A DNA stretch of 64,000 bases from a virus (lineage: Duplodnaviria; Heunggongvirae; Uroviricota; Caudoviricetes). Below are positions 3,225-12,413 of this stretch, in pieces. How positions within the stretch are numbered: position 1 is the first letter of the stretch; each line of letters opens with the position of its first letter. The stretch covers positions 64,001 to 128,000 of IMG/VR virus record IMGVR_UViG_3300028797_000099; one strand, 5' to 3'. Made by a program: the position numbers and the translations under genes. The notes under the pieces are model-generated. The model did not search any database. It worked only from the letters and a program-made list of their open reading frames with translations, and was not told the origin of the DNA.

Positions 3225-3265
3225 AAAAAAGGCCCGACTATTAAAGTCGGGCCCATATGTTTTAT
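3225..3265. terminator. Intrinsic terminator between convergent units
   Basis: aaaaaa-ggcccgac-tattaaa-gtcgggcc. Confidence 0.7.
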
Positions 3266-3284
3266 CTTTCGGCTTTGCAATTAG

Positions 3285-3358
3285 TACCCGAGACAGGGGT
3301 CGAACCTGTCACCAACGGTTTAGAAGACCGTCGCTCTAGTCCACTGAGCTACTCGGGC
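3285..3358 (-). tRNA. tRNA-Arg(TCT)
   Basis: Cloverleaf; ACGGT-CTTCTAA-ACCGT. Confidence 0.9.
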
Positions 3359-3369
3359 AAGTTCATTAG

Positions 3370-3443
3370 TCGGCAGAGTGGGACTCGAACCCACAAAATC
3401 TTGGGTTTGAACCAAGCACGTATACCAGTTCCATCACCTGCCG
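3370..3443 (-). tRNA. tRNA-Leu(CAA), short variable loop
   Basis: CTTGG-TTCAAAC-CCAAG; Leu-type D loop, 5-nt variable region. Confidence 0.8.
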
Positions 3444-3450
3444 AATTTAG

Positions 3451-3534
3451 TCGGTAAGGGGGGACTCGAACCCCCACGTCCTTACGGACACCAGCCCCTC
3501 AAGCTGATGCGCCTACCAGTTCCGCCACCTACCG
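3451..3534 (-). tRNA. tRNA-Leu(GAG)
   Basis: TCAGC-TTGAGGG-GCTGG; long variable arm. Confidence 0.9.
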
Positions 3535-3552
3535 AGATGGAAATAAAAGTAA

Positions 3553-3634
3553 TCGGAAAGGTGGGACTCGAACCCACACACCTTTCAGCACAAGAGCCTA
3601 AATCTTGCGTGTCTACCAGTTCCACCACAATCCG
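3553..3634 (-). tRNA. tRNA-Leu(TAG)
   Basis: CAAGA-TTTAGGC-TCTTG; long arm; two U-U mismatches in acceptor stem. Confidence 0.85.
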
Positions 3635-3648
3635 AAAAAAAGTTATAG

Positions 3649-3721
3649 CAGGACGTGATGGACTCGAACCACCGACTAACAGTTTTGGAGACTGCAGACC
3701 TACCAACTGGTCGAACGCCCT
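3649..3721 (-). tRNA. tRNA-Trp(CCA)
   Basis: GCAGT-CTCCAAA-ACTGT. Confidence 0.9.
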
Positions 3722-3754
3722 GTAATGGATGGCCTTTCGGCCACCCGAATGAAA

Positions 3755-5098
3755 CTACTCTTCGGTGTTTCCATTCATCTTTTCGTACTCAGCAATGTAC
3801 TTGAAGATACCGTCGCTGAATCCGTTGATGTGAATGAACTTACCGTATTCAATTCCGTTCTGGTACGTTGCTACGTTCACAATGTACTTGTGCGGAATTC
3901 TGAGTACTTCCTTGCTGAAGTAGCTACCAGAAGACTGTTCGTCCGTAATGATAATCAATCGGTCGAACGGTCTGTTGTTAGCCTTGACAGCATCGTTCGT
4001 GCTTCTCTGGATGTCAGTACCACCCATAGAACGAGCACAACGGTCAGCAAGAGAGAAACCCTTCTCCGTGCAAAGATGTGCAGTATTGTCAAAGGTGTAG
4101 ACCTTCGTGAACTCGCACACTTCGTTCATGATAGCAGCGATGGAAGCTGCTGCCTGAGCACGGGTGACTTCGCCCTTGCCGGACAACTGACAACTCATGG
4201 AACCCGACGTGTCAACCATGAAGAGAGTGTTCCCTTCAAGCTTGTCGAACGTTTCCCTGGCGGATTGAAGCATTGCTGCTTCAAGCTGCTTGGAGTATGT
4301 TCCAGCGCTGTACTTGTTGGCCGTATAGAAGTTGTACGGCATGACACCACGAACATTCATCTTCTCGATGCCATCCACGATTGCTCGTTGTGACACCTTT
4401 GCCTGCTCCATGTTGCGGAGGTTCCTCAACAGGGCAAGCGCACCGAGCCTGTTCTGGGAAAGAAGGTTCTCGAAGACTTCCTTCTTATCCTTGCCTGCGC
4501 TCAACTCAGTTTCCCAGGTAAGCGGTGTTGCAAGGCTGTCGTCCACAATCTTCTTGTAGAGAGCGTTCGTTTCGTCGTTCGGGGCCTTCGGGTGGCAAAG
4601 CATGACCGCATCCTTCAAGGAAACCGTCTTCTTCGTGCCCTTGTACTTACCGAACTGGTACTCGTCGAACTTGGCGAATGCCAATGCGAGACCCTTCTGC
4701 AACTGCTTCGGCAACGTCTTCTTGCCTTCCGCAAGGAACATTGCAAGCAACTCGGTGATGTCATCAACACGGGTTACGGTCGAATTGACAAGTTCCTTGG
4801 TAAGCTTGCCTTGCTGTGCAAGAACAGTCAGCATGAACAACGGGGTATGACGAAGGTGATATTCGTGTTTTACCTTGTTCAATGTTGCAATGGCGAACTC
4901 GGTGCTGACCTTGCCCATGTACTCCTTGATGCGGTCCTTGACCGACTGACCGTCCTCATAGAACGTATCCTCGTTCAAAAGACAGCTGAGCACGGTACGC
5001 TGCAGCTTCTCCTCGTAGCCAATGTGTGATGCCTTTCCACCCTCGTAAGTAGACACCGGGGTAGATACCTTTCTCTTGTTAATCGACGCCATAATCAT
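3755..5098 (-). CDS. rsr: TROVE-domain Ro60-like RNA-binding protein with C-terminal vWA domain
   Basis: TYEGG, L.RTVLSCLL.ED.FYE, LRHTPL, KFDEYQFGKY, TWETELS, ALLRNLRN; vWA DTSGSM, GGTD, IITDEQ. Confidence 0.92.
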   Translation of the reverse strand: MIMASINKRKVSTPVSTYEGGKASHIGYEEKLQRTVLSCLLNEDTFYEDGQSVKDRIKEYMGKVSTEFAIATLNKVKHEYHLRHTPLFMLTVLAQQGKLTKELVNSTVTRVDDITELLAMFLAEGKKTLPKQLQKGLALAFAKFDEYQFGKYKGTKKTVSLKDAVMLCHPKAPNDETNALYKKIVDDSLATPLTWETELSAGKDKKEVFENLLSQNRLGALALLRNLRNMEQAKVSQRAIVDGIEKMNVRGVMPYNFYTANKYSAGTYSKQLEAAMLQSARETFDKLEGNTLFMVDTSGSMSCQLSGKGEVTRAQAAASIAAIMNEVCEFTKVYTFDNTAHLCTEKGFSLADRCARSMGGTDIQRSTNDAVKANNRPFDRLIIITDEQSSGSYFSKEVLRIPHKYIVNVATYQNGIEYGKFIHINGFSDGIFKYIAEYEKMNGNTEE

Positions 5099-5138
5099 CT
5101 CCTTTGTTGATTAGGAATTGTTGATGTTGAAAAAATAT

Positions 5139-5277
5139 TGCCAGATGCCGGACTCGAACCGACAACTTCCTGCTTGGATTATCTAAGTAGCACATCCAAC
5201 GCCACAGACCATATGGACTGGGAAAAAGCGAACGTGAACATTGAGGGCTGGCGCTCTACCTATTGAGCTAATCTGAC
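5139..5277 (-). ncRNA. tRNA-shaped Y-like RNA A (tRNA-Gly-like body, ~65-nt insert in anticodon loop)
   Basis: Acceptor GTCAGAT/ATCTGGC, D arm, T arm TTCGAGT; insert CGCTTTTTCCC...GTGGCGTTGGA..TACTTAG. Confidence 0.75.
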
Positions 5278-5287
5278 ATAAATGTAG

Positions 5288-5432
5288 TGCCGATGGAAAG
5301 ATTCGAACTTTCAATAGTTTTTAGCTAAGTAACTCTCACTATCGCAGCGGTTTCCCGAGAAAAGCGCAAGAGGAACATTTCCCCTGCCAGTTATCAACCT
5401 GTGACACAGATTGACGGGGAAATAACATCGGC
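5288..5432 (-). ncRNA. tRNA-shaped Y-like RNA B (D arm replaced by long hairpin)
   Basis: Acceptor GCCGATG/CATCGGC, T arm GAAAG-TTCGAAT-CTTTC, module GCTTTTCTC...TGCGATAG..TTACTTAG. Confidence 0.65.
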
Positions 5433-5445
5433 ATAAAAATTGTAG

Positions 5446-5579
5446 TACCATAGGCTGGATTTGAACCAACGACCACAAGTTCCTCATCGAAGTAAGCCAT
5501 TCAAACGTCACCTTTTCAGGGAAAAAAGACGAAAGGCGATTTCATATACTCGTGCTCTACCAGACTGAGCTACTATGGT
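5446..5579 (-). ncRNA. tRNA-shaped Y-like RNA C
   Basis: Acceptor ACCATAG/CTATGGT, D and T arms; insert CTTTCGTCTTTTTTCCC-TGAAAA-GGTGACGTTTGAATGGCTTACTT. Confidence 0.75.
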
Positions 5580-5586
5580 ATTTTAG

Positions 5587-5670
5587 AGGAGAGAACAGGG
5601 TTCGAACCTGCGTGTCGTTTCCGACAAAGCTTTAGCAAAGCTCCGCTTTTACCAATTCAGCCATCTCTCC
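5587..5670 (-). tRNA. tRNA-Ser(GCT)
   Basis: GAGCT-TTGCTAA-AGCTT; long arm. Confidence 0.9.
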
Positions 5671-5674
5671 ATAA

Positions 5675-5748
5675 TGTGCTTGGCCAGAGTCGAACTGGCG
5701 ACCTACAGTTTAGGAAACTGTTGCTCTATCCAGCTGAGCTACAAGCAC
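5675..5748 (-). tRNA. tRNA-Arg(CCT)
   Basis: ACAGT-TTCCTAA-ACTGT. Confidence 0.9.
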
Positions 5749-5755
5749 AAGCGGA

Positions 5756-6037
5756 TTACTTCAATGTATCATCAGTGTATTCCAACGATACCTTGTCATT
5801 GCCGAAAAAGATTTCGACAGTAACAGTGTAAACCTTTTCAGTGTTGTACCTGTCCCAAACTCGCCACAACTTGGCACCAACGGAAGCTGCGGCACCCTGG
5901 AAGATGTCGCATACGCTATTAAGGACATCCTTCTTAGGCAAGGTCGTATCTTTGCTATCGACCGTTTTAAGCAACTTCGCCATCTTGTCAGCAACGGCTG
6001 CCTTTACAGCATTAACATCATTCAATGATGCACTCAT
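5756..6037 (-). CDS. Hypothetical protein inside tRNA array
   Basis: AAAGGAG SD before ATG 6037 (MSASLNDV...). Confidence 0.65.
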   Translation of the reverse strand: MSASLNDVNAVKAAVADKMAKLLKTVDSKDTTLPKKDVLNSVCDIFQGAAASVGAKLWRVWDRYNTEKVYTVTVEIFFGNDKVSLEYTDDTLK

Positions 6038-6065
6038 ATCATCTCCTTTACTGTTTAACATTTCG

Positions 6066-6150
6066 AGCGCACGGTAAGAGTCGAACTTACGTGGGCGTTC
6101 AGCCTAGAGGTGTTGCAGACCTCCCCCTTCGACCGCTTGGGTACGTGAGC
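6066..6150 (-). tRNA. tRNA-Cys(GCA) with long variable arm
   Basis: GAGGT-CTGCAAC-ACCTC; U73; Tyr-like D loop and long arm. Confidence 0.75.
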
Positions 6151-6154
6151 AAAA

Positions 6155-6755
6155 ATCGCCATTCTCTTTATAACAAACCGAATGGCGAAGGCCGTGTATC
6201 CTTATATAGACACAATCATCCACGCTTATGTACACTAACATGGCCAGTTTTTCGGATTCACCGCAGGGAACAGTACCTGATTGTAACAACGAAGACGTCT
6301 GTTATCTTGACTTAATGCACCTCTTGCAACAACATTGCTGTACCCGCCCTCATTAAGGACCTGCCTCTATTCGGAACGGCAGCTGCAATTCTTTGTCGGT
6401 ACACATGGGCTTTAATACCCACATTCCTTCGTGCAATATATCCTGTTAGAAAGAACAGGAACTTGTGCATCATCTTCTTCCCTTGGCTTCCACACCTTGA
6501 ATGAGAGCAGTCTGCCCTCACCGATTTGGGTTTAACTAATCGGGATGATGCATCGGGAATCACACGGATAGTAGCATGCCAGTCACGGTGAACTATCTGC
6601 GTCCTATCCATAACTACCGCCAACTGCATTGTGGCGAAGACGGCAGTCATTTTTTAGTGATTGTGGAAAATCTTGTCGGCACCCGTTATGTGGCTTTCGC
6701 CGCAACCTTTGGCTTTTATAACGTGTCTTGCAACACATGACCATCTTTCAGTGCC
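6155..6755 (-). ncRNA. Candidate ~600-nt structured RNA
   Basis: No convincing ORF; multiple perfect inverted repeats; sits between tRNAs. Confidence 0.35.
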
Positions 6756-6762
6756 TATTTAG

Positions 6763-6835
6763 TTGGGGTAGCTGGACTCGAACCAACGAATATGGGAATC
6801 AAAATCCCATGTCTTACCAACTTGACGATACCCCA
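6763..6835 (-). tRNA. tRNA-Gln(TTG)
   Basis: TGGGA-TTTTGAT-TCCCA. Confidence 0.9.
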
Positions 6836-6842
6836 GTAATAG

Positions 6843-6915
6843 TACCCCATCAAGGGTTCGAACCTTGGACCCGCTGATTAAGAGTCAGCTGCTCTTCCAA
6901 CTGAGCTAATGAGGC
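6843..6915 (-). tRNA. tRNA-Lys(CTT)
   Basis: GCTGA-CTCTTAA-TCAGC. Confidence 0.9.
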
Positions 6916-6924
6916 GAAACTTCG

Positions 6925-6997
<73 letters not shown>

Positions 6998-7001
6998 ATA
7001 G

Positions 7002-7074
7002 AGCGGATAATGGGGTTCGAACCCACAACAACCTGCTTGGAGGGCAGGAACTCTACCAGTTGAGCTACATCCGC
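7002..7074 (-). tRNA. tRNA-Gly(TCC), C at position 33
   Basis: CCTGC-CCTCCAA-GCAGG; U73. Confidence 0.85.
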
Positions 7075-7082
7075 AAAATTAG

Positions 7083-7152
7083 TTAACCTTCGTGAATTCG
7101 AACCACGACACAGAACGAACCGAAGCCCGTTGTGCGCCAAACCTGGAGGCTA
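7083..7152 (-). ncRNA. tRNA-like RNA with UUCG tetraloop in place of anticodon loop
   Basis: Acceptor TAGCCTC/AAGGTTA, T arm CGTGG-TTCGAAT-TCACG, AACGGGC-TTCG-GTTCGTT. Confidence 0.55.
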
Positions 7153-7404
7153 AGATTTGTGCACCAATCTATTGCACCATCAGCTCTTTGGGACGCTGAC
7201 ACCCCACCTTCATCTCGGGACGGTGCGAAACGCTATCTATTTGACACTCGCCAAGGCATAGAATTATCCTTATGTGAAGTTCACCCGCATTACCAGATAC
7301 GGTTTTCGACGCCATATCCTTCCTGCCCTTTTTACTTCCAACTTTAGAGGCCGTTTGATTTGCAATGTCATCACAGTAAATAAACGGTAAGAAAGCAAGA
7401 TTCG

Positions 7405-7480
7405 TGGGCCCCCCGAGACTTGAACTCGGAAAACCTTCGGGTTATGAGTCCGCTGCTCTGACCTATTGAGCTAGAGGCCC
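7405..7480 (-). tRNA. tRNA(CAT), probably Ile2 (lysidine type)
   Basis: GGGCCTC acceptor, CTCATAA loop; resembles bacterial Ile2; weak anticodon stem. Confidence 0.7.
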
Positions 7481-7491
7481 AGAAACAATTT

Positions 7492-7623
7492 GATTAGGAT
7501 AGCACCAATGAGCAGCACGTTGTATTACTACAACTCGGTCTCACAGCTACCATTTCCCTCCCTTGGAGGAGAGCGTATTAAGCACTCAGCATTACTACAT
7601 TGAGTTCATTTATACGACTAATC
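7492..7623 (-). ncRNA. Structured RNA H, closed by GATTAG/CTAATC, with anticodon-like hairpin (TAA)
   Basis: GAGTG-CTTAATA-CGCTC followed by TCCTCC-AAG-GGAGGG and GTTGTA-GTAA-TACAAC hairpins. Confidence 0.4.
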
Positions 7624-7627
7624 TTAG

Positions 7628-7758
7628 CGCCAGCGGCAGGACTCGAACCTACGACCCCGAGCTTCCTAATGCTAAGTAACCCATTCCAAAACGCCACCCT
7701 TGCGGGAGAAAATGCGGACAGGTGTTGTACGTGCTCTAACCAACTGAGCTACGCTGGC
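7628..7758 (-). ncRNA. tRNA-shaped Y-like RNA D (56-nt insert, 8-nt anticodon-position loop)
   Basis: GCCAGCG/CGCTGGC acceptor; CG[insert]AGC-ATTAGGAA-GCTCG; T arm. Confidence 0.78.
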
Positions 7759-7766
7759 AAAAAAAA

Positions 7767-7859
7767 TCCAGGTAAATGCAGAAACCGATGTGCCCATCGC
7801 AAGGCACTATACATTAAGAGTGTACAAGGTCTATGTATCGGTTATCTATCGACACTGGA
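7767..7859 (-). ncRNA. Permuted Y-like RNA G displaying a Lys(CTT) anticodon stem-loop
   Basis: TCCAG-TGTCGAT...TTTAC-CTGGA closing stem; GTACA-CTCTTAA-TGTAT. Confidence 0.62.
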
Positions 7860-7870
7860 TGAATTTCTAG

Positions 7871-7999
7871 TACCAGGGGCAGGACTCGAACCTACGACCA
7901 CGAGCTTAACAGGCTAAGTAACCCGTTCCAAACGCCACCCTTGCGGGAGAAAAACGGACAGGTATTTTTACGTGCTCTAACCAACTGAGCTACCCTGGA
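7871..7999 (-). ncRNA. tRNA-shaped Y-like RNA E (tRNA-Asn(GTT) plus 55-nt insert between nt 28 and 29)
   Basis: Removing the insert yields a 74-nt cloverleaf with CGAGC-CTGTTAA-GCTCG. Confidence 0.8.
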
Positions 8000-8008
8000 G
8001 AAAAATTA

Positions 8009-8095
8009 AAGTCAGGTAAAAGACGAAAGCGCATTGCCATAGGCGAACGGATTTGCAGTCTGTTTCTAAGTAACGCTTTCAAACGACACTGACTT
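8009..8095 (-). ncRNA. Permuted Y-like RNA F displaying a GCA anticodon stem-loop
   Basis: AAGTCAG-TGTCGTTTGAAAGCG-TTACTTAG...AACAGA-CTGCAAA-TCCGTT...CGCTTTC-GTCTTTTAC-CTGACTT. Confidence 0.68.
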
Positions 8096-8097
8096 AG

Positions 8098-8186
8098 TGG
8101 GTTGAATAGGAGTCGAACCTACAATGTTTACCCAGAGGGAACGGATTTACAGTCCGTTGCGAAACCACCATCCTCGCAGTCAACCC
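8098..8186 (-). tRNA. tRNA-Tyr(GTA)
   Basis: AACGGA-CTGTAAA-TCCGTT; long arm. Confidence 0.85.
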
Positions 8187-8201
8187 AAATAAAATTGTTA
8201 C

Positions 8202-8274
8202 TGGAGCATAGGAGATTCGAACTCCTGACCCCCTGCGTGCAAAGCAGGTGCTCTACCAACTGAGCTAATACCCC
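8202..8274 (-). tRNA. tRNA-Ala(TGC)
   Basis: CCTGC-TTTGCAC-GCAGG; G3.U70. Confidence 0.92.
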
Positions 8275-8335
8275 ATAAATTGCAAAGCCAAAATTTCAAT
8301 CAGCGGGCTAACAACTCGTGTCAACCACGGTCAGA

Positions 8336-8364
8336 AAGATAGAAACTAAGACATCGTTTGTCAA
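8336..8364 (-). promoter_or_regulatory. Internal sigma70-type promoter of the RNA array
   Basis: TTGACA-N17-TATCTT with AT-rich upstream tract. Confidence 0.7.
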
Positions 8365-8398
8365 GGGTTTCTACCAAAATTTTCAAACTTTTTTTTAG

Positions 8399-8480
8399 TC
8401 GGGTACGTGAGATTCGAACCCACACTCCTCGCAGAACATCGCCCTGAACGATGCGTGTCTACCAATTCCACCAGAACCCG
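8399..8480 (-). tRNA. tRNA-Leu(CAG)
   Basis: CATCG-TTCAGGG-CGATG; long arm. Confidence 0.9.
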
Positions 8481-8486
8481 AAGTAG

Positions 8487-8561
8487 TTGCGGAGAACGGA
8501 CTTGAACCGTTGACACACGGATTATGATTCCGTTGCTCTAAACCAACTGAGCTACACCGCA
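8487..8561 (-). tRNA. tRNA-Met(CAT), elongator
   Basis: ACGGA-ATCATAA-TCCGT. Confidence 0.8.
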
Positions 8562-8564
8562 TCG

Positions 8565-8855
8565 GTGATGACGCTTTTGGACTATCAGTCTACGGTCTTT
8601 CATAGCAGGTACGTCATCGTGGGCAACCTCAAACTTCTCCAGTTGTAGTCGTTTGCCACCTCGGGTTCGTAAGCACCTCGCATGCTTCAACCCGTCATTA
8701 GCTCTTTTACGAGAAGAACGCTAATGGCCTTTTAAATGGCGGCGTTTTAGCCTGTCACCGAGCAGGGGCCACGTTTCCCGTCCATCCCATGCCCGTCTCG
8801 GCATGATTGACTCAAATTGACGGGACCCGCCTTGCAAGCACAACAAAATCATAGA
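8565..8855 (-). ncRNA. Candidate structured RNA (~290 nt)
   Basis: Serial stems GATGACG/CGTCATC, GGCAA/TTGCC, CGGGTT/AACCCG, CATTAGC/GCTAATG. Confidence 0.35.
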
Positions 8856-8863
8856 ATAGTTAG

Positions 8864-8934
8864 TCCGCCAGTCGAGACTCGAACTCGAACTAAGGGAATC
8901 ACAATCCCTTGTGCTACCGTTACACCACTGAGGG
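8864..8934 (-). tRNA. tRNA-His(GTG), atypical (A73, no encoded G-1)
   Basis: AGGGA-TTGTGAT-TCCCT. Confidence 0.75.
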
Positions 8935-8939
8935 GGTAG

Positions 8940-9014
8940 TACTCCCAATAGGATTCGAACCTATGACCCCTTGCTTGTAAGGCAAGCGCTCTGAACCAAC
9001 TGAGCTATGGAAGT
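8940..9014 (-). tRNA. tRNA-Val(TAC)
   Basis: CTTGC-CTTACAA-GCAAG. Confidence 0.9.
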
Positions 9015-9022
9015 AAATTTAG

Positions 9023-9105
9023 CGCAACCAGCGAGACTTGAACTCGCACGCCCATAGGGCACCAGCGTGACAGGCTGGCCTGGCTACCAATTTCAGCATG
9101 GCTGC
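9023..9105 (-). tRNA. tRNA-Asp(GTC) with long variable arm
   Basis: CCAGC-CTGTCAC-GCTGG; arm TGCCC-TAT-GGGCG; G73. Confidence 0.78.
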
Positions 9106-9112
9106 ATACATA

Positions 9113-9186
9113 TAGCTCCAACGGGACTCGAACCCGTATTACCGCCTTGAGAGGGCGACGAACTAGGCCAGTTATTCGATAGAGCC
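9113..9186 (-). tRNA. tRNA-Glu(CTC)
   Basis: TCGCC-CTCTCAA-GGCGG. Confidence 0.9.
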
Positions 9187-9194
9187 AAAATACA

Positions 9195-9376
9195 ATGGAT
9201 AGGTGAATATGCGGAGTATCACCGTGACAGCTTCCCCGTACCGATGCGAAATCTGCTTATAACCTAAAACAAACCGTTTCGCTTTTACGCCTATCTTGTC
9301 GGCACGTATATCTGTCGTAGCTGGCATGTAGGTTGTTCCTTCAGGCAACCAGCCCGCTGAACAGAGTTCTATCCAA
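9195..9376 (-). ncRNA. Candidate ~180-nt long irregular hairpin RNA (6S-like shape)
   Basis: GGATAG/CTATCC ends; GACAG/CTGTC, CGTGCCGA/TCGGTACG, GCGAAA/TTTCGC stems separated by bubbles. Confidence 0.4.
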
Positions 9377-9382
9377 TGTTAG

Positions 9383-9459
9383 TGACACTAGCAGGACTCG
9401 AACCTGCGACCTTCTCGTTCGTAGCGAGACGCTCTAAATTCCGACTGAGCTATAATGCC
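9383..9459 (-). tRNA. tRNA-Arg(ACG)
   Basis: TCTCG-CTACGAA-CGAGA. Confidence 0.9.
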
Positions 9460-9468
9460 ATAAAAGTA

Positions 9469-9541
9469 AGCGTCATGTCGGACTCGAACCGACGACCTTC
9501 TCCATGGCAAGGAGACGCTCTACCAACTGAGCTAATGACGC
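9469..9541 (-). tRNA. tRNA-Gly(GCC)
   Basis: TCTCC-TTGCCAT-GGAGA; U73. Confidence 0.9.
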
Positions 9542-9549
9542 AGTAAAAG

Positions 9550-9642
9550 AAGCGAGGGTGGGATTCGAACCCACGGATGACAGGGCCACTGCCACCGACG
9601 GTTTTCAAGACCGCTGCAATAAGCCAGCTCTACCACCTCGCC
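9550..9642 (-). tRNA. tRNA-Ser(TGA)
   Basis: GCGGT-CTTGAAA-ACCGT; long arm. Confidence 0.9.
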
Positions 9643-9650
9643 ATATTTAG

Positions 9651-9724
9651 TCGGAATGGCAGGATTTGGACCTACGACCTCTTGCTCCCGAAGCAAGCGC
9701 TCTACCAGACTGAGCTATATTCCG
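9651..9724 (-). tRNA. tRNA-Pro(CGG)
   Basis: CTTGC-TTCGGGA-GCAAG. Confidence 0.88.
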
Positions 9725-9731
9725 AAATTTA

Positions 9732-10005
9732 TTTAAACACAAACTTACAGGCGTCCTAATTTCAAGGACGGATTAAGGAGCACACTTGGTGGTTAACCCA
9801 AAGTTTATCTCCCCCATTCTTATTTCAAATGGTCTCACGTGGCATATTTTAGTAGAGCCAATACTACACCTCTGCGACCATCATTCTGGTATTCATCTAA
9901 TTCGCAGAGACAGATTCCTCATCCCTGAGTTTTCCCCATCAGGGTTAGCCCGTTAGCATGAAATCAAGAACGATGCAACACGGGTTCTACTCATTTGTGT
10001 TTAAA
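9732..10005 (-). ncRNA. Candidate ~275-nt multi-hairpin RNA
   Basis: 12-bp terminal stem TTTAAACACAAA/TTTGTGTTTAAA enclosing at least 6 hairpins. Confidence 0.5.
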
Positions 10006-10019
10006 CAAAGTTTGATGAA

Positions 10020-10240
10020 TTCGAGGAGCTGCGGGGGTTACGGCATCCTTTCCGCTTGTCGCCGAGGCCATCGGTTTGTCATCTATGTTGCGAACGGGCT
10101 CACCTACTAGCCCTTACATAGACCGAAGATGGTTATCGTTACCATTTAATAGCAGGCTTCATCACGCCTCCCGTCCATCGATATCCGAACGAAACGGGTC
10201 TGGCCCTCAATGACGGACATTTAGCCAGATGTTTTCTAAC
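10020..10240 (-). ncRNA. Candidate structured RNA (~220 nt)
   Basis: Stems TCTGGC/GCCAGA, CCCGT/ACGGG, ATGGT/ACCAT, GGGCT/AGCCC. Confidence 0.3.
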
Positions 10241-10330
10241 TCCGACAGTAAGACTCGAACTTACGACCTGAGCTTTAGGTGACTACTTATGGCTACTGAG
10301 TGAACCATATTACACCTATAATTTAATTAG

Positions 10331-10403
10331 CTCCGATGGAGAGACTCGAACTCCCGACCAGCTCATTACGAATGAGCTGCTCTACCAACTGAGCTACAAC
10401 GGA
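10331..10403 (-). tRNA. tRNA-Thr(CGT)
   Basis: GCTCA-TTCGTAA-TGAGC. Confidence 0.88.
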
Positions 10404-10409
10404 ATGTAG

Positions 10410-10483
10410 TAGCGCCAACGGGACTCGAACCCGTATTGCCGCCTTGAAAGGGCGATGAACTAGGCCAGTTATTCGATAGCGCC
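10410..10483 (-). tRNA. tRNA-Glu(TTC)
   Basis: TCGCC-CTTTCAA-GGCGG; near-copy of tRNA-Glu(CTC). Confidence 0.9.
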
Positions 10484-10493
10484 AAAAATATAG

Positions 10494-10567
10494 TCCGCAA
10501 CCCTGGACTCGAACCAGGAACCTCCACCTTATCAGAGTGGCTATCTAACCAGTTGCTATAGCTGCGG
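10494..10567 (-). tRNA. tRNA-Ile(GAT)
   Basis: CCACT-CTGATAA-GGTGG. Confidence 0.85.
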
Positions 10568-10654
10568 ATAAAAACAATAGGTGGGTGGTTTATAACCACC
10601 AAAATCCCACCCCGTGGGCACCTACTTTGTTTCACCTATTGTTTAATACTTTCG

Positions 10655-10728
10655 TGCCAGCTTCTGGAGTCGAACCAGACTACTCGGATTTTCAGTCCGG
10701 CCCAATCACCGGGTTTGGGTTAGCTGGC
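10655..10728 (-). tRNA. tRNA-Phe(GAA)
   Basis: CCGGA-CTGAAAA-TCCGA. Confidence 0.85.
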
Positions 10729-10824
10729 AAAATGATTGACCAAGAATCACGAAGGAGTCCAACCTTCCACATGGACTGAGCCATCGCCAGCGGGAACATT
10801 GAGACCCTTGGCCAATCGAGTTAG

Positions 10825-10898
10825 TAGCGGGGGCAGGACTCGAACACTGCGACCTTTGGGTTATGAGCCCAACAAGCTACCAACTGCTCCACCCCGCA
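10825..10898 (-). tRNA. tRNA-fMet(CAT), initiator
   Basis: TTGGG-CTCATAA-CCCAA (three G-C pairs); 1:72 mismatch. Confidence 0.88.
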
Positions 10899-10911
10899 AA
10901 TTTCTTCATAG

Positions 10912-10984
10912 TTGCCGTTGAGCGGTTCGAACGCCCGAATACAGGAGTCAGAGTCCTGTGCCTTACCAGCTTGGCGAAACGGCA
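10912..10984 (-). tRNA. tRNA-Gln(CTG)
   Basis: CAGGA-CTCTGAC-TCCTG. Confidence 0.88.
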
Positions 10985-10992
10985 ATAAATAG

Positions 10993-11063
10993 CTCACGTT
11001 AAAGGAATCGAACCTTTGTTTCCCGCTGCAGACAGGCAACTCTTCCAGTTAAGCTAAACGTGA
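10993..11063 (-). pseudogene. Degenerate tRNA, anticodon undetermined (TGC?)
   Basis: Good acceptor TCACGTT/AACGTGA and T arm; irregular anticodon arm GCCTG-TCTGCAG-CGGGA. Confidence 0.5.
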
Positions 11064-11066
11064 ATA

Positions 11067-11139
11067 AGCCTGTGGAGAGGCTCGAACTCCCGACCAGATG
11101 CTTACAAAGCAACTGCTCTACCAACTGAGCTACACAGGC
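11067..11139 (-). tRNA. tRNA-Thr(TGT)
   Basis: GTTGC-TTTGTAA-GCATC. Confidence 0.88.
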
Positions 11140-11144
11140 GATAA

Positions 11145-11520
11145 AACAACTTCACCAATTCCACCATCATATCGGCCTACACCGATATTAACTTCTCCCG
11201 CTCCCGAAGCGAGTGTGTCTCCTGATTACAAAGCTAAAATGCTCAGGCTAATAGGCGGCCCTTTTCGGTTGGGTTCCCACAATGGAGCTACCATCACGAT
11301 TATCACAACCTATTAGGGGCCGCTTTTCACCTGCGGATGTTTCTGGGAGCTACCCAGAGGTCCATTCTAAACTTGGGGCGTCGTTTTGCTTTACCGTCCC
11401 TACCGTCCCGGCCAGACTTCCTGCGCACTCCGTACTAGCCTGCGAATTTCGTTTCAGCGGATGTATATGCGGTAGTTAACTACCACCTGGGAACTATGCC
11501 ATAACCTGTGTCAACATCCT
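11145..11520 (-). ncRNA. Candidate ~370-nt structured RNA
   Basis: Hairpins GGTAG-TTAA-CTACC, CTGGG-TAGCT-CCCAG, ATATCGG-TGTAGG-CCGATAT; no credible ORF. Confidence 0.35.
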
Positions 11521-11531
11521 TTTAAATTTAG

Positions 11532-11604
11532 CTGACATGACTGGACTCGAACCAGTGACCAGACGATTAACAGTCGCCGACTCTACCTACTGAGCTACAT
11601 GTCA
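11532..11604 (-). tRNA. tRNA-Asn(GTT)
   Basis: GGCGA-CTGTTAA-TCGTC; G73. Confidence 0.9.
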
Positions 11605-11610
11605 ATAATA

Positions 11611-11920
11611 TCCCTGGGCACCACCCCTTTCACATGTTGTCATGGGTGCGTCAGGATTGGACGCAGAAAGCTTTACTCAAAGCTAACGAACCTACCGCCT
11701 GTAACGATGGGTAAACACCGAATGGAGGAAATAGGACCAATTACCGATTACCTTTTACCATTTTAGACGGATTTGTTGTCGGTTGTGGCACCAAACCCCA
11801 ACGAACTGGCCGTCGCCAGACATAGAGTTTGCAAACCGTCAGAAAGCCACTTTACCATAAAGCATATACCGAAGTATATACCGATGGTTCTCGTCCATCC
11901 AACACAAACTGGAAGGACAA
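11611..11920 (-). ncRNA. Candidate ~310-nt structured RNA
   Basis: ATATAC-TTCG-GTATAT, CTGGC-GACG-GCCAG, AGCTTT-GAGT-AAAGCT, TGCGTC/GACGCA. Confidence 0.35.
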
Positions 11921-11923
11921 TAG

Positions 11924-11997
11924 TCGGGGTAGCCAGATTCGAACTGACGACATCCTGCTCCCAAAGCAGGCGCTCTACCAGACTGAGCTACACCCCG
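11924..11997 (-). tRNA. tRNA-Pro(TGG)
   Basis: CCTGC-TTTGGGA-GCAGG. Confidence 0.9.
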
Positions 11998-12384: not shown

Positions 12385-12413
12385 ATTATAGAAATATTCA
12401 AAAGCTTTGTCAA
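12385..12413 (-). promoter_or_regulatory. Consensus sigma70 promoter driving the RNA array
   Basis: Perfect TTGACA-N17-TATAAT. Confidence 0.85.

Follow-up and report, generated by a model that had tools for sequence, protein, structure and literature searches.

What kind of RNAs lie beside a Ro60 gene in a large phage genome, and how do their tRNA-like bodies relate to the tRNA mimic of the known Y RNA YrlA? The question is raised by a 64,000-nt stretch of a virus of the Caudoviricetes (positions 64,001 to 128,000 of IMG/VR record IMGVR_UViG_3300028797_000099; hereafter the window), in which a sequence-only reading had noticed a TROVE/vWA gene with a family of Y-like RNAs and had proposed that these occur in two circularly permuted architectures. 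YrlA (RF02553), known from Salmonella, M. smegmatis and phages including CcrColossus, is a Y RNA that mimics a tRNA (Chen et al. 2014, PMC4201824; Wang et al. 2018, bioRxiv 10.1101/312249). It has been likened to a tRNA in circular permutation, with the acceptor stem closed (Wang et al., bioRxiv 10.1101/312249). Our comparative analysis identifies five of the seven window RNAs, A-E, as the un-permuted counterpart of YrlA, a single chain with a capped Ro stem, and finds this form to be widespread in phages.

A Ro60 gene and seven RNAs that share one module

We analyzed the protein-coding gene and the RNAs around it, all of which lie on the minus strand. R1 denotes a covariance model built from RNAs D and E, and A1-A6 are alignments of the RNAs with their orthologs in close contigs.

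3755..5098, minus strand: Ro60/TROVE-vWA protein gene; 447 amino acids; Pfam TROVE match and phiLo Ro60 match
5139..5277, minus strand: RNA A, tRNA topology; acceptor GUCAGAU/AUCUGGC, D arm, T arm; Rfam tRNA 43.5 bits over 139 nt; R1 57 bits
5288..5432, minus strand: RNA B; acceptor GCCGAUG/CAUCGGC and T arm, long hairpin in place of the D arm; fold z -3.4; alignment A3
5446..5579, minus strand: RNA C, tRNA topology; acceptor ACCAUAG/CUAUGGU; Rfam tRNA 48 bits over 134 nt; R1 82 bits
7628..7758, minus strand: RNA E, tRNA topology; GCAA-capped module at nt 28/29; R1 156 bits; alignment A4 and pair counts
7766..7860, minus strand: RNA G, canonical topology, small; fold z -2.2; alignment A6
7871..7999, minus strand: RNA D, tRNA topology; GCAA-capped module at nt 28/29; R1 168 bits; partial tRNA-Asn call by ARAGORN
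8009..8095, minus strand: RNA F, canonical topology, small; closing strands near-identical to the module strands of C, in reversed order

The TROVE/vWA assignment held up. The gene product matched Pfam TROVE with 58 bits (E 1.3e-15; cut-off 23) and vWA_Ro60 weakly, with 24.9 bits, just under the cut-off of 27.7. Its best solved homolog was the Ro60 protein of Thermus phage phiLo (9KOP/9L5Y), matched over its full length (E 1.4e-26, residues 12-437), and phage relatives at 33-42% identity, among them proteins of CcrColossus and crAss001, are annotated as TROVE or RNA-binding. Matches to the window protein were present in 79 of 50,697 deposited phage records (~0.16%). These comparisons identify the gene as one encoding a Ro60 ring protein.

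The RNAs were likewise found where the sequence-only reading had put them: A, B and C, described there as three tRNA-shaped RNAs, lie directly upstream of the TROVE gene on the same strand, with B lacking a D arm, and E, G, D and F make up the four further relatives at 7628-8095. All seven share one module, a bulged helix of ~45 nt. Its G strand reads (helix)-U-G-N-C-G-(U-rich or AUAG)-(helix)-UUACUU, with variants in B and G, and its pyrimidine-rich partner strand reads (helix)-CG-N-Y-UUUU(A/C)-(helix). The claim of a shared motif was supported by counts, as GTTACTTAG occurred four times against 0.31 expected, a number reached in 0 of 100 shuffles. RNAs A-E begin the module with the pyrimidine strand and cap the helix with a loop, confirmed as GCAA in D and E, whereas in F and G the G strand is 5' and the pyrimidine strand 3', so that the RNA is closed by the module itself. 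The near-identity of the C and F strands in opposite order, put forward as the mark of permutation, was also confirmed: both RNAs contain identical CTTTCGTCTTTT 12-mers, in opposite order relative to GTG[A/T]CGTTTGAA. A search of the window with the loose regular expression TGNYG...TACWT yielded no further members (44 matches against 28.6 in shuffles, which is unspecific).

In RNAs A, C, D and E, the two gene ends pair into a 7-bp acceptor stem, and D arm, variable loop and T arm are all present. In both A and C, the match to the Rfam tRNA model runs across a single large insertion. The earlier description of a module embedded in a tRNA with free acceptor ends therefore stands as regards the tRNA body and its ends, and needs refinement as regards the embedding: in D and E the helix branches off at nt 28/29 and an anticodon-like hairpin is kept. 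In RNA D, the D arm is followed by CG, by the capped module of ~55 nt ending in UUACUU, and then by AGC-CUGUUAA-GCU-CG. Because of this order, the module branches from the 5' strand of the anticodon stem between nt 28 and 29, and the kept arm CG/AGC-CUGUUAA-GCU/CG (Asn GUU) has a perfect 5-bp stem and a 7-nt loop. The kept hairpin of the window's RNA E is AGC-AUUAGGAA-GCU, with an 8-nt loop; in E orthologs of the type found in contig L002 it is AGU-CUGCAAA-ACU (Cys GCA) with a compensating stem change, and these orthologs also have U73 and hence two marks of tRNA-Cys. RNAs A and C lack an anticodon-like loop; A carries the capped module in its anticodon arm, and C carries it within a closed 5-bp anticodon stem. 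Thus the continuous 5-bp anticodon stem with a 7-nt loop that characterizes a tRNA was found in none of the four, being interrupted by ~55 nt in D and E and without a loop in A and C. In RNA B the module is CUGCGAUAG...GAG-UUACUUAG, with UGCG in place of GNCG. The same variant without a D arm is also encoded by crAss001 (L131, 4333-4488) and by records L034, L059 and L102.

The two small RNAs share the module and have no T arm. In RNA G the module is formed by the RNA's own ends, AUCCAG-U-GUCGAUAG... and ...UUUAC-CUGGAU, with the exit variant AUACAU, and the interior consists of GUACA-CUCUUAA-UGUAU (a Lys CUU-type loop on a 5-bp stem) and a GC hairpin. The closing strands of G are conserved in alignment A6 and the interior is variable. 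The interior of RNA F, ACAGA-CUGCAAA-UCCGU, resembles the anticodon arm of tRNA-Tyr, its neighbour in the array (15 of 17 positions identical), though it carries GCA.

For A, C, D and E, folding of single sequences gave weak minimum-free-energy z scores (-0.9 to +0.6); the structures are based on comparative data rather than on energies. An alternative junction for D and E proposed by RNAalifold, in which ACU pairs with GGU, was set aside, since the CG/CG closure pairs covary strongly in the wide set of relatives. Between E and a tRNA-Met there is a further structured stretch of 132 nt with a GAUUAG/CUAAUC closing stem and a minimum free energy of -40.5 kcal/mol. This candidate (H, 7485-7625, minus strand) was not counted as a member, as it lacks GNCG, UUACUU and an ortholog in contigs L001-L006.

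Circular order of the tRNA-topology RNAs and of canonical YrlA

A search of the native window sequence with the Rfam YrlA model (gathering threshold 69 bits) matched none of the seven RNAs; its sole matches, of at most 27 bits, ran across tandem ordinary tRNAs. Canonical phage forms score only 30-43 bits with this model. For an in-silico permutation, RNA D was cut in its GCAA cap, its acceptor ends were joined, and the product was aligned pairwise with canonical units, with native-order and shuffled sequences as controls. Permuted D aligned end to end with a YrlA-like RNA of CcrColossus with a score of 143.5, compared to 82 for the native order and 50.9 +/- 6.3 for shuffles (z 14.8 for the permuted and 5.0 for the native order). 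Against a unit of record L010 the score was 116.5 (z 10.7) after permutation and 70 (z 3.0) in native order. Because permuted D is collinear with both the CcrColossus and the L010 units, D corresponds exactly, down to the three-way junction, to a circularly permuted canonical phage YrlA. The permutation proposed earlier is thus borne out by these scores, and on sequence grounds A-E have native tRNA topology and are an exact circular permutation of YrlA.

The canonical units themselves show where the two orders correspond. In L010, a tandem series of four or five Y-like RNAs immediately precedes the Ro60 gene, and its last member (5841-5955) matched the Rfam YrlA model with 42 bits (E 7e-8 for that search), under the gathering score. 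It reads GUGGCG...GG-UUACUU-CGC-CUUGUAA-GCG-AG, followed by the T arm, a closed acceptor hairpin, the D arm and the pyrimidine strand. The RNAs of CcrColossus, a phage credited with Y-like RNAs in PMC12135203 (citing Chen et al. 2014), have the same layout, and one of its units carries a CUGUUAA hairpin. A three-way junction of the nt 28/29 type with an anticodon-like hairpin is therefore also present in canonical phage YrlAs. In the CcrColossus genome (L132), the feature at 1673-1740 that GenBank lists as tRNA-Gln lies inside a closed YrlA-like unit with GUGGCG...CUUACUU, a CUG-type hairpin, a T arm, a long closed acceptor and a D arm, and is probably a mis-annotation.

We also considered whether the open form could be a read-through of two tandem closed units. 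This artefact does occur for low-scoring R1 matches in CcrColossus and L044. For the window it was rejected, as C, A and the copy in crAss001 stand alone between ordinary genes and compensation of acceptor pairs is seen within each unit. Open and closed forms were interleaved in a Ro60 tree, in which form labels came from a crude script and deep branches are unresolved, and record L085 carries both forms by its TROVE gene, a closed YrlA-like RNA (6458-6569, minus strand; Rfam 36 bits) and an open RNA (6887-7010, minus strand; R1 54.9 bits, CUGUUAA). The permutation may have run in either direction, from the closed to the open form, as the sequence-only reading had it, or the reverse.

With YrlA, RNAs A-E have in common the position beside Ro60, a bulged Ro-type stem with a GNCG strand (UGCG in B), an acceptor, a T arm and, except in B, a D arm, in which nucleotides conserved in tRNAs recur. 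Once A-E are permuted, their elements follow in the YrlA order, and phage YrlAs likewise show an anticodon-like hairpin after UUACUU. They differ in that the acceptor of YrlA is closed by a loop and its ends lie at the Ro stem, while A-E have an open acceptor and a capped Ro stem. The closed acceptor hairpin of the Rfam consensus structure is accordingly absent from A-E. Furthermore, the window motif is GNCG with a U-rich/GAA stretch, in contrast to GNCGAAN0-1G. The nearest precedent for the acceptor-open form is the YrlA of M. smegmatis, which is opened by RNase P and gains CCA (Wang et al., bioRxiv 10.1101/312249; Chen et al. 2014, PMC4201824) and then has a tRNA-like domain with a 7-bp acceptor stem and a free, CCA-bearing 3' end. 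That molecule is a cleaved closed YrlA in two pieces with an open Ro stem, however, whereas the open acceptor of A-E is encoded by the gene and the RNA is a single chain.

RNAs F and G resemble Yrn1 of D. radiodurans, which was modelled with an anticodon-like arm (PMC12135203), and Yrl1 and Yrl2 of phage phiLo, seen with phiRo60 (PMC12135203; PDB 9L5Y), in that the ends form the Ro stem around an internal effector region. Unlike these RNAs, F and G have no T arm and their interiors vary among close relatives; moreover, the CGAA motif by which the phiLo RNAs were selected does not occur in the window RNAs. A tRNA body in two circular orders is also known from the permuted tRNA genes of Cyanidioschyzon and some archaea (as cited by Wang et al. 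2018), which give precursors of working tRNAs that are matured by splicing endonuclease and ligase; for the window RNAs, the partner in the other order is a non-coding RNA associated with Ro60. A literature search, which did not cover the supplements of Chen 2014 or two reviews from the Wolin laboratory, found no published single-chain, acceptor-open YrlA.

Recurrence of the open form and its linkage to TROVE

We next compared the RNAs across related contigs and other viral records. The source record is 175 kb long with a CheckV completeness estimate of 42%, and the related contig L003 is 419 kb, so that the source genome is that of a phage of roughly 420 kb. Megablast found no close relative among cultured phages. 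Six contigs carry Ro60 at 84-93% identity to that of the window and five more at 26-38%. Every one of the seven RNAs has an ortholog in 6 of 6 close contigs (alignments A1-A6). Compensatory changes affect acceptor, anticodon, T and cap helices; for C (A1) they are seen in its acceptor and anticodon stems and as a GCC/GGC to GUC/GAC exchange, and for A (A2) in its anticodon stem and cap hairpin. In the orthologs of D and E, the cloverleaf pairs were 100% paired, and the RNAs keep all nucleotides of the tRNA tertiary contacts.

Beyond this family, viral contigs were scanned for a D stem, UUACUU and a T loop, in that order. The scan gave 20 matches with correct acceptor and T stems, and R1 scores for these and further matches ranged from 30 to 116 bits. 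The open form thus recurs in ~20 other viral records. Its anticodon-like hairpins include those for Asn GUU (L016, L085), Thr UGU (L035, L044, L082, L108), Lys UUU (L019, L034) and Ile GAU (L112). TROVE was present in 17 of the 22 open-form records, usually 0.1-3 kb from the RNA and in Ro60 lineages that are mutually 25-55% identical, and its background frequency is 79 in 50,697 phage records. For most loci the gene was seen in the DNA retrieved around the RNA, and one further case came from the full record. Five records had no TROVE in the available sequence, four of them fragments estimated to be 12-14% complete. The suggested search for co-occurrence with TROVE by covariance model was therefore positive, and the module covaries beyond the window.

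A cultured phage is among the carriers. In crAss001 (MH675552.1, L131), an unannotated gap at 3900-4560, downstream of the TROVE gene gp96, holds two R1 matches of 60.7 and 30.8 bits, one tRNA-wired RNA at 4078-4238 and one RNA without a D arm, the B-type variant named above. The open-form RNA lies 270 nt downstream of the TROVE gene and has an 8-nt loop. In addition, small F/G-like candidates, apparently closed by their own ends and containing UUACUUC, are seen at ~3910-3990 and ~4490-4560.

These comparisons identify the module as homologous to the closing stem of Ro60-linked YrlA-type RNAs. Because those RNAs lie beside Ro60 genes in other phages, the module is most likely a docking site for Ro60, and we consider it probable that the window encodes a phage Ro60/Y-RNA system composed of Ro60 and seven module-bearing RNAs, of which A-E are wired like tRNAs and F and G are classical. 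Several observations weigh against this interpretation. The module has the GNCGAAN0-1G motif only in part, as GNCG is followed by UUUGAA, UUGGA or AUAG and not by AA, and no window RNA reaches the Rfam YrlA threshold. One record with an estimated completeness of 70% carries the RNA without a TROVE match. Covariation within the close family amounts to 4 pairs only, and the GNCG/CG core pairs are mostly invariant and thus uninformative. In its favour, a wide alignment of 35-40 diverse members (A7) had module helices that were 83-94% paired, compared to 39-46% for controls with slid partners, and compensatory changes occurred at every module helix pair; A7 was, however, fitted to the D/E-derived model, and its pair counts are biased toward that structure.

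The tRNA array, a proposed mechanism and its alternatives

The seven RNAs and the Ro60 gene are part of a tRNA array. ARAGORN made 36 tRNA calls, all on the minus strand within 3284-11997; one of these, a tRNA-Asn at 7870-7944, is a false call within RNA D, and the remaining 35 are ordinary tRNAs, among them a tRNA-Asn and a tRNA-Cys. In minus-strand order, a first block consists of tRNA-Tyr, F (8095-8009), D (7999-7871), G (7860-7766) and E (7758-7628), which places D-G ~2.5-3 kb upstream of the Ro60 gene on the same strand; further downstream follow tRNA-Ser, C (5579-5446), B (5432-5288), A (5277-5139) and then Ro60, with 41 nt between the end of A and the Ro60 start codon. The array's tRNA-Cys (6065-6150, minus strand, 86 nt) and tRNA-Asp (9022-9105, minus strand, 84 nt) have long extra arms in the variable region, which is unusual for such types. 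Two further features bracket the array:

12385..12413, minus strand: sigma-70-type promoter-like site, TTGACA-17-TATAAT, 12/12, a consensus match only; upstream of the first array tRNA
3230..3254, minus strand: intrinsic-terminator-like hairpin of 10 bp, 7 GC, with a T run; just past the last array tRNA

The block between them, ~9.2 kb with 35 tRNAs, seven Y-like RNAs and the Ro60 gene, suggests one transcription unit. Since such sites lie at both of its ends, the RNAs and the Ro60 mRNA may share one precursor. CCA is encoded in none of the array tRNA genes or Y-like RNAs, and a trailer N73-C-U-A (discriminator-C-U-A, e.g. ...A-C-UAA) follows A-E and almost all ordinary array tRNAs; this common trailer may be a 3' processing signal. 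The same phage record also encodes an RtcB RNA ligase (G000:C1:28808-29875, locus L135; Pfam RtcB 205 bits), outside the window and ~38 kb from the Ro60 gene.

From this arrangement we propose the following course of events. RNAs A-E would be cut from a polycistronic precursor by RNase P, tRNA 3' processing and CCA enzymes, like their neighbour tRNAs, a maturation that fits the trailer shared with these tRNAs. As F and G are each flanked directly by tRNA-like units on both sides (tRNA-Tyr, F, D, G, E), the cuts made at these units would free them as well. Ro60 would then dock on the module helix of each RNA, and the tRNA-like bodies and bare anticodon arms would act as effector parts that bring Ro60 to tRNA-recognising factors or compete for such factors. 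The setting would be a conflict over tRNA damage and repair, as the phage also encodes RtcB; the combination of phage RtcB and Ro60 echoes the rsr-yrlBA-rtcBA operon of Salmonella, which responds to damaged tRNAs (PMC7790460). It is a tentative possibility that the tRNA-wired Y RNAs mature like tRNAs (RNase P, 3' trimming, CCA), are perhaps aminoacylated and, clamped to Ro60, act toward tRNA-targeting factors (anticodon nucleases, for example) as decoys, sensors or delivery vehicles, with F and G as bare anticodon-arm baits. Aminoacylation is conceivable because L002-type E RNAs have both tRNA-Cys marks, GCA and U73.

An entirely different reading, which we regard as very unlikely, is that D, E and their relatives are interrupted tRNA genes, from which the 55-nt insert is excised and the halves religated, for example by the phage RtcB, to give tRNA-Asn and tRNA-Cys, with Ro60 at most a chaperone or gate. 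Removal of the insert at nt 28/29 does restore 5-bp stems and 7-nt loops, CUGUUAA in D and CUGCAAA with U73 in L002-type E, and the genome does encode the ligase; possible processing of some YrlAs toward canonical tRNAs was also raised by Wang et al. (bioRxiv 10.1101/312249). Yet A, B and C offer no anticodon loop to restore, the loops of the window's E and of crAss001 have 8 nt, and F and G bear the same module without a tRNA body. Furthermore, ordinary tRNA-Asn and tRNA-Cys genes are already in the array, and the insert shares homology with the stem that closes canonical YrlAs. The known self-splicing introns of bacterial tRNA genes are far longer than the insert of D and E, which also counts against an interruption of this kind.

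It is likewise unlikely that the shared helix works without Ro60, as a processing or stability element of tRNA operons or as the site of another protein, and that its linkage to TROVE reflects shared tRNA/RNA-repair islands. The 5 of 22 RNA-bearing records without TROVE, especially the one estimated to be 70% complete, and the departure of the module motif from the published GNCGAA speak for such an explanation, but four of the five are fragments, and the proximity of TROVE in 17 of 22 records, across divergent Ro60 lineages and against a background of ~0.16%, is contrary to it, as is the fact that the module is the stem of RNAs that the Rfam YrlA model recognises beside Ro60. That the elements are decaying tRNA pseudogenes, or a functionless repeat that landed in tRNA genes, would account for their location in a tRNA array and for the partial tRNA calls by ARAGORN and Rfam. 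Compensatory changes in every helix, conservation across distant phages and the retained tertiary-contact nucleotides largely refute this possibility, to which we assign next to no weight. Thus, a Ro60/Y-RNA system remains the preferred interpretation of the locus.

Since the known YrlAs have no free CCA end, charging and other tRNA-like activities had seemed doubtful for them. The role of the tRNA-like domain of bacterial Y RNAs is reopened by a form that is encoded in the gene, occurs widely, leaves the acceptor ends free and often keeps an intact anticodon-type hairpin. The open form also bears on the evolution of YrlA: instead of deriving from a tRNA dimer, YrlA may go back to an ordinary tRNA that acquired a Ro-binding hairpin at nt 28/29 and whose order was permuted afterwards within tandem arrays. 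Such genes are missed or mis-called by annotation pipelines, as exemplified by the tRNA-Asn called in D and the unannotated copies in crAss001, a phage that is cultured on Bacteroides intestinalis and hence offers a tractable system. Together, the open form, the tRNA array and RtcB tie phage Ro60 to a conflict over tRNA damage and repair.

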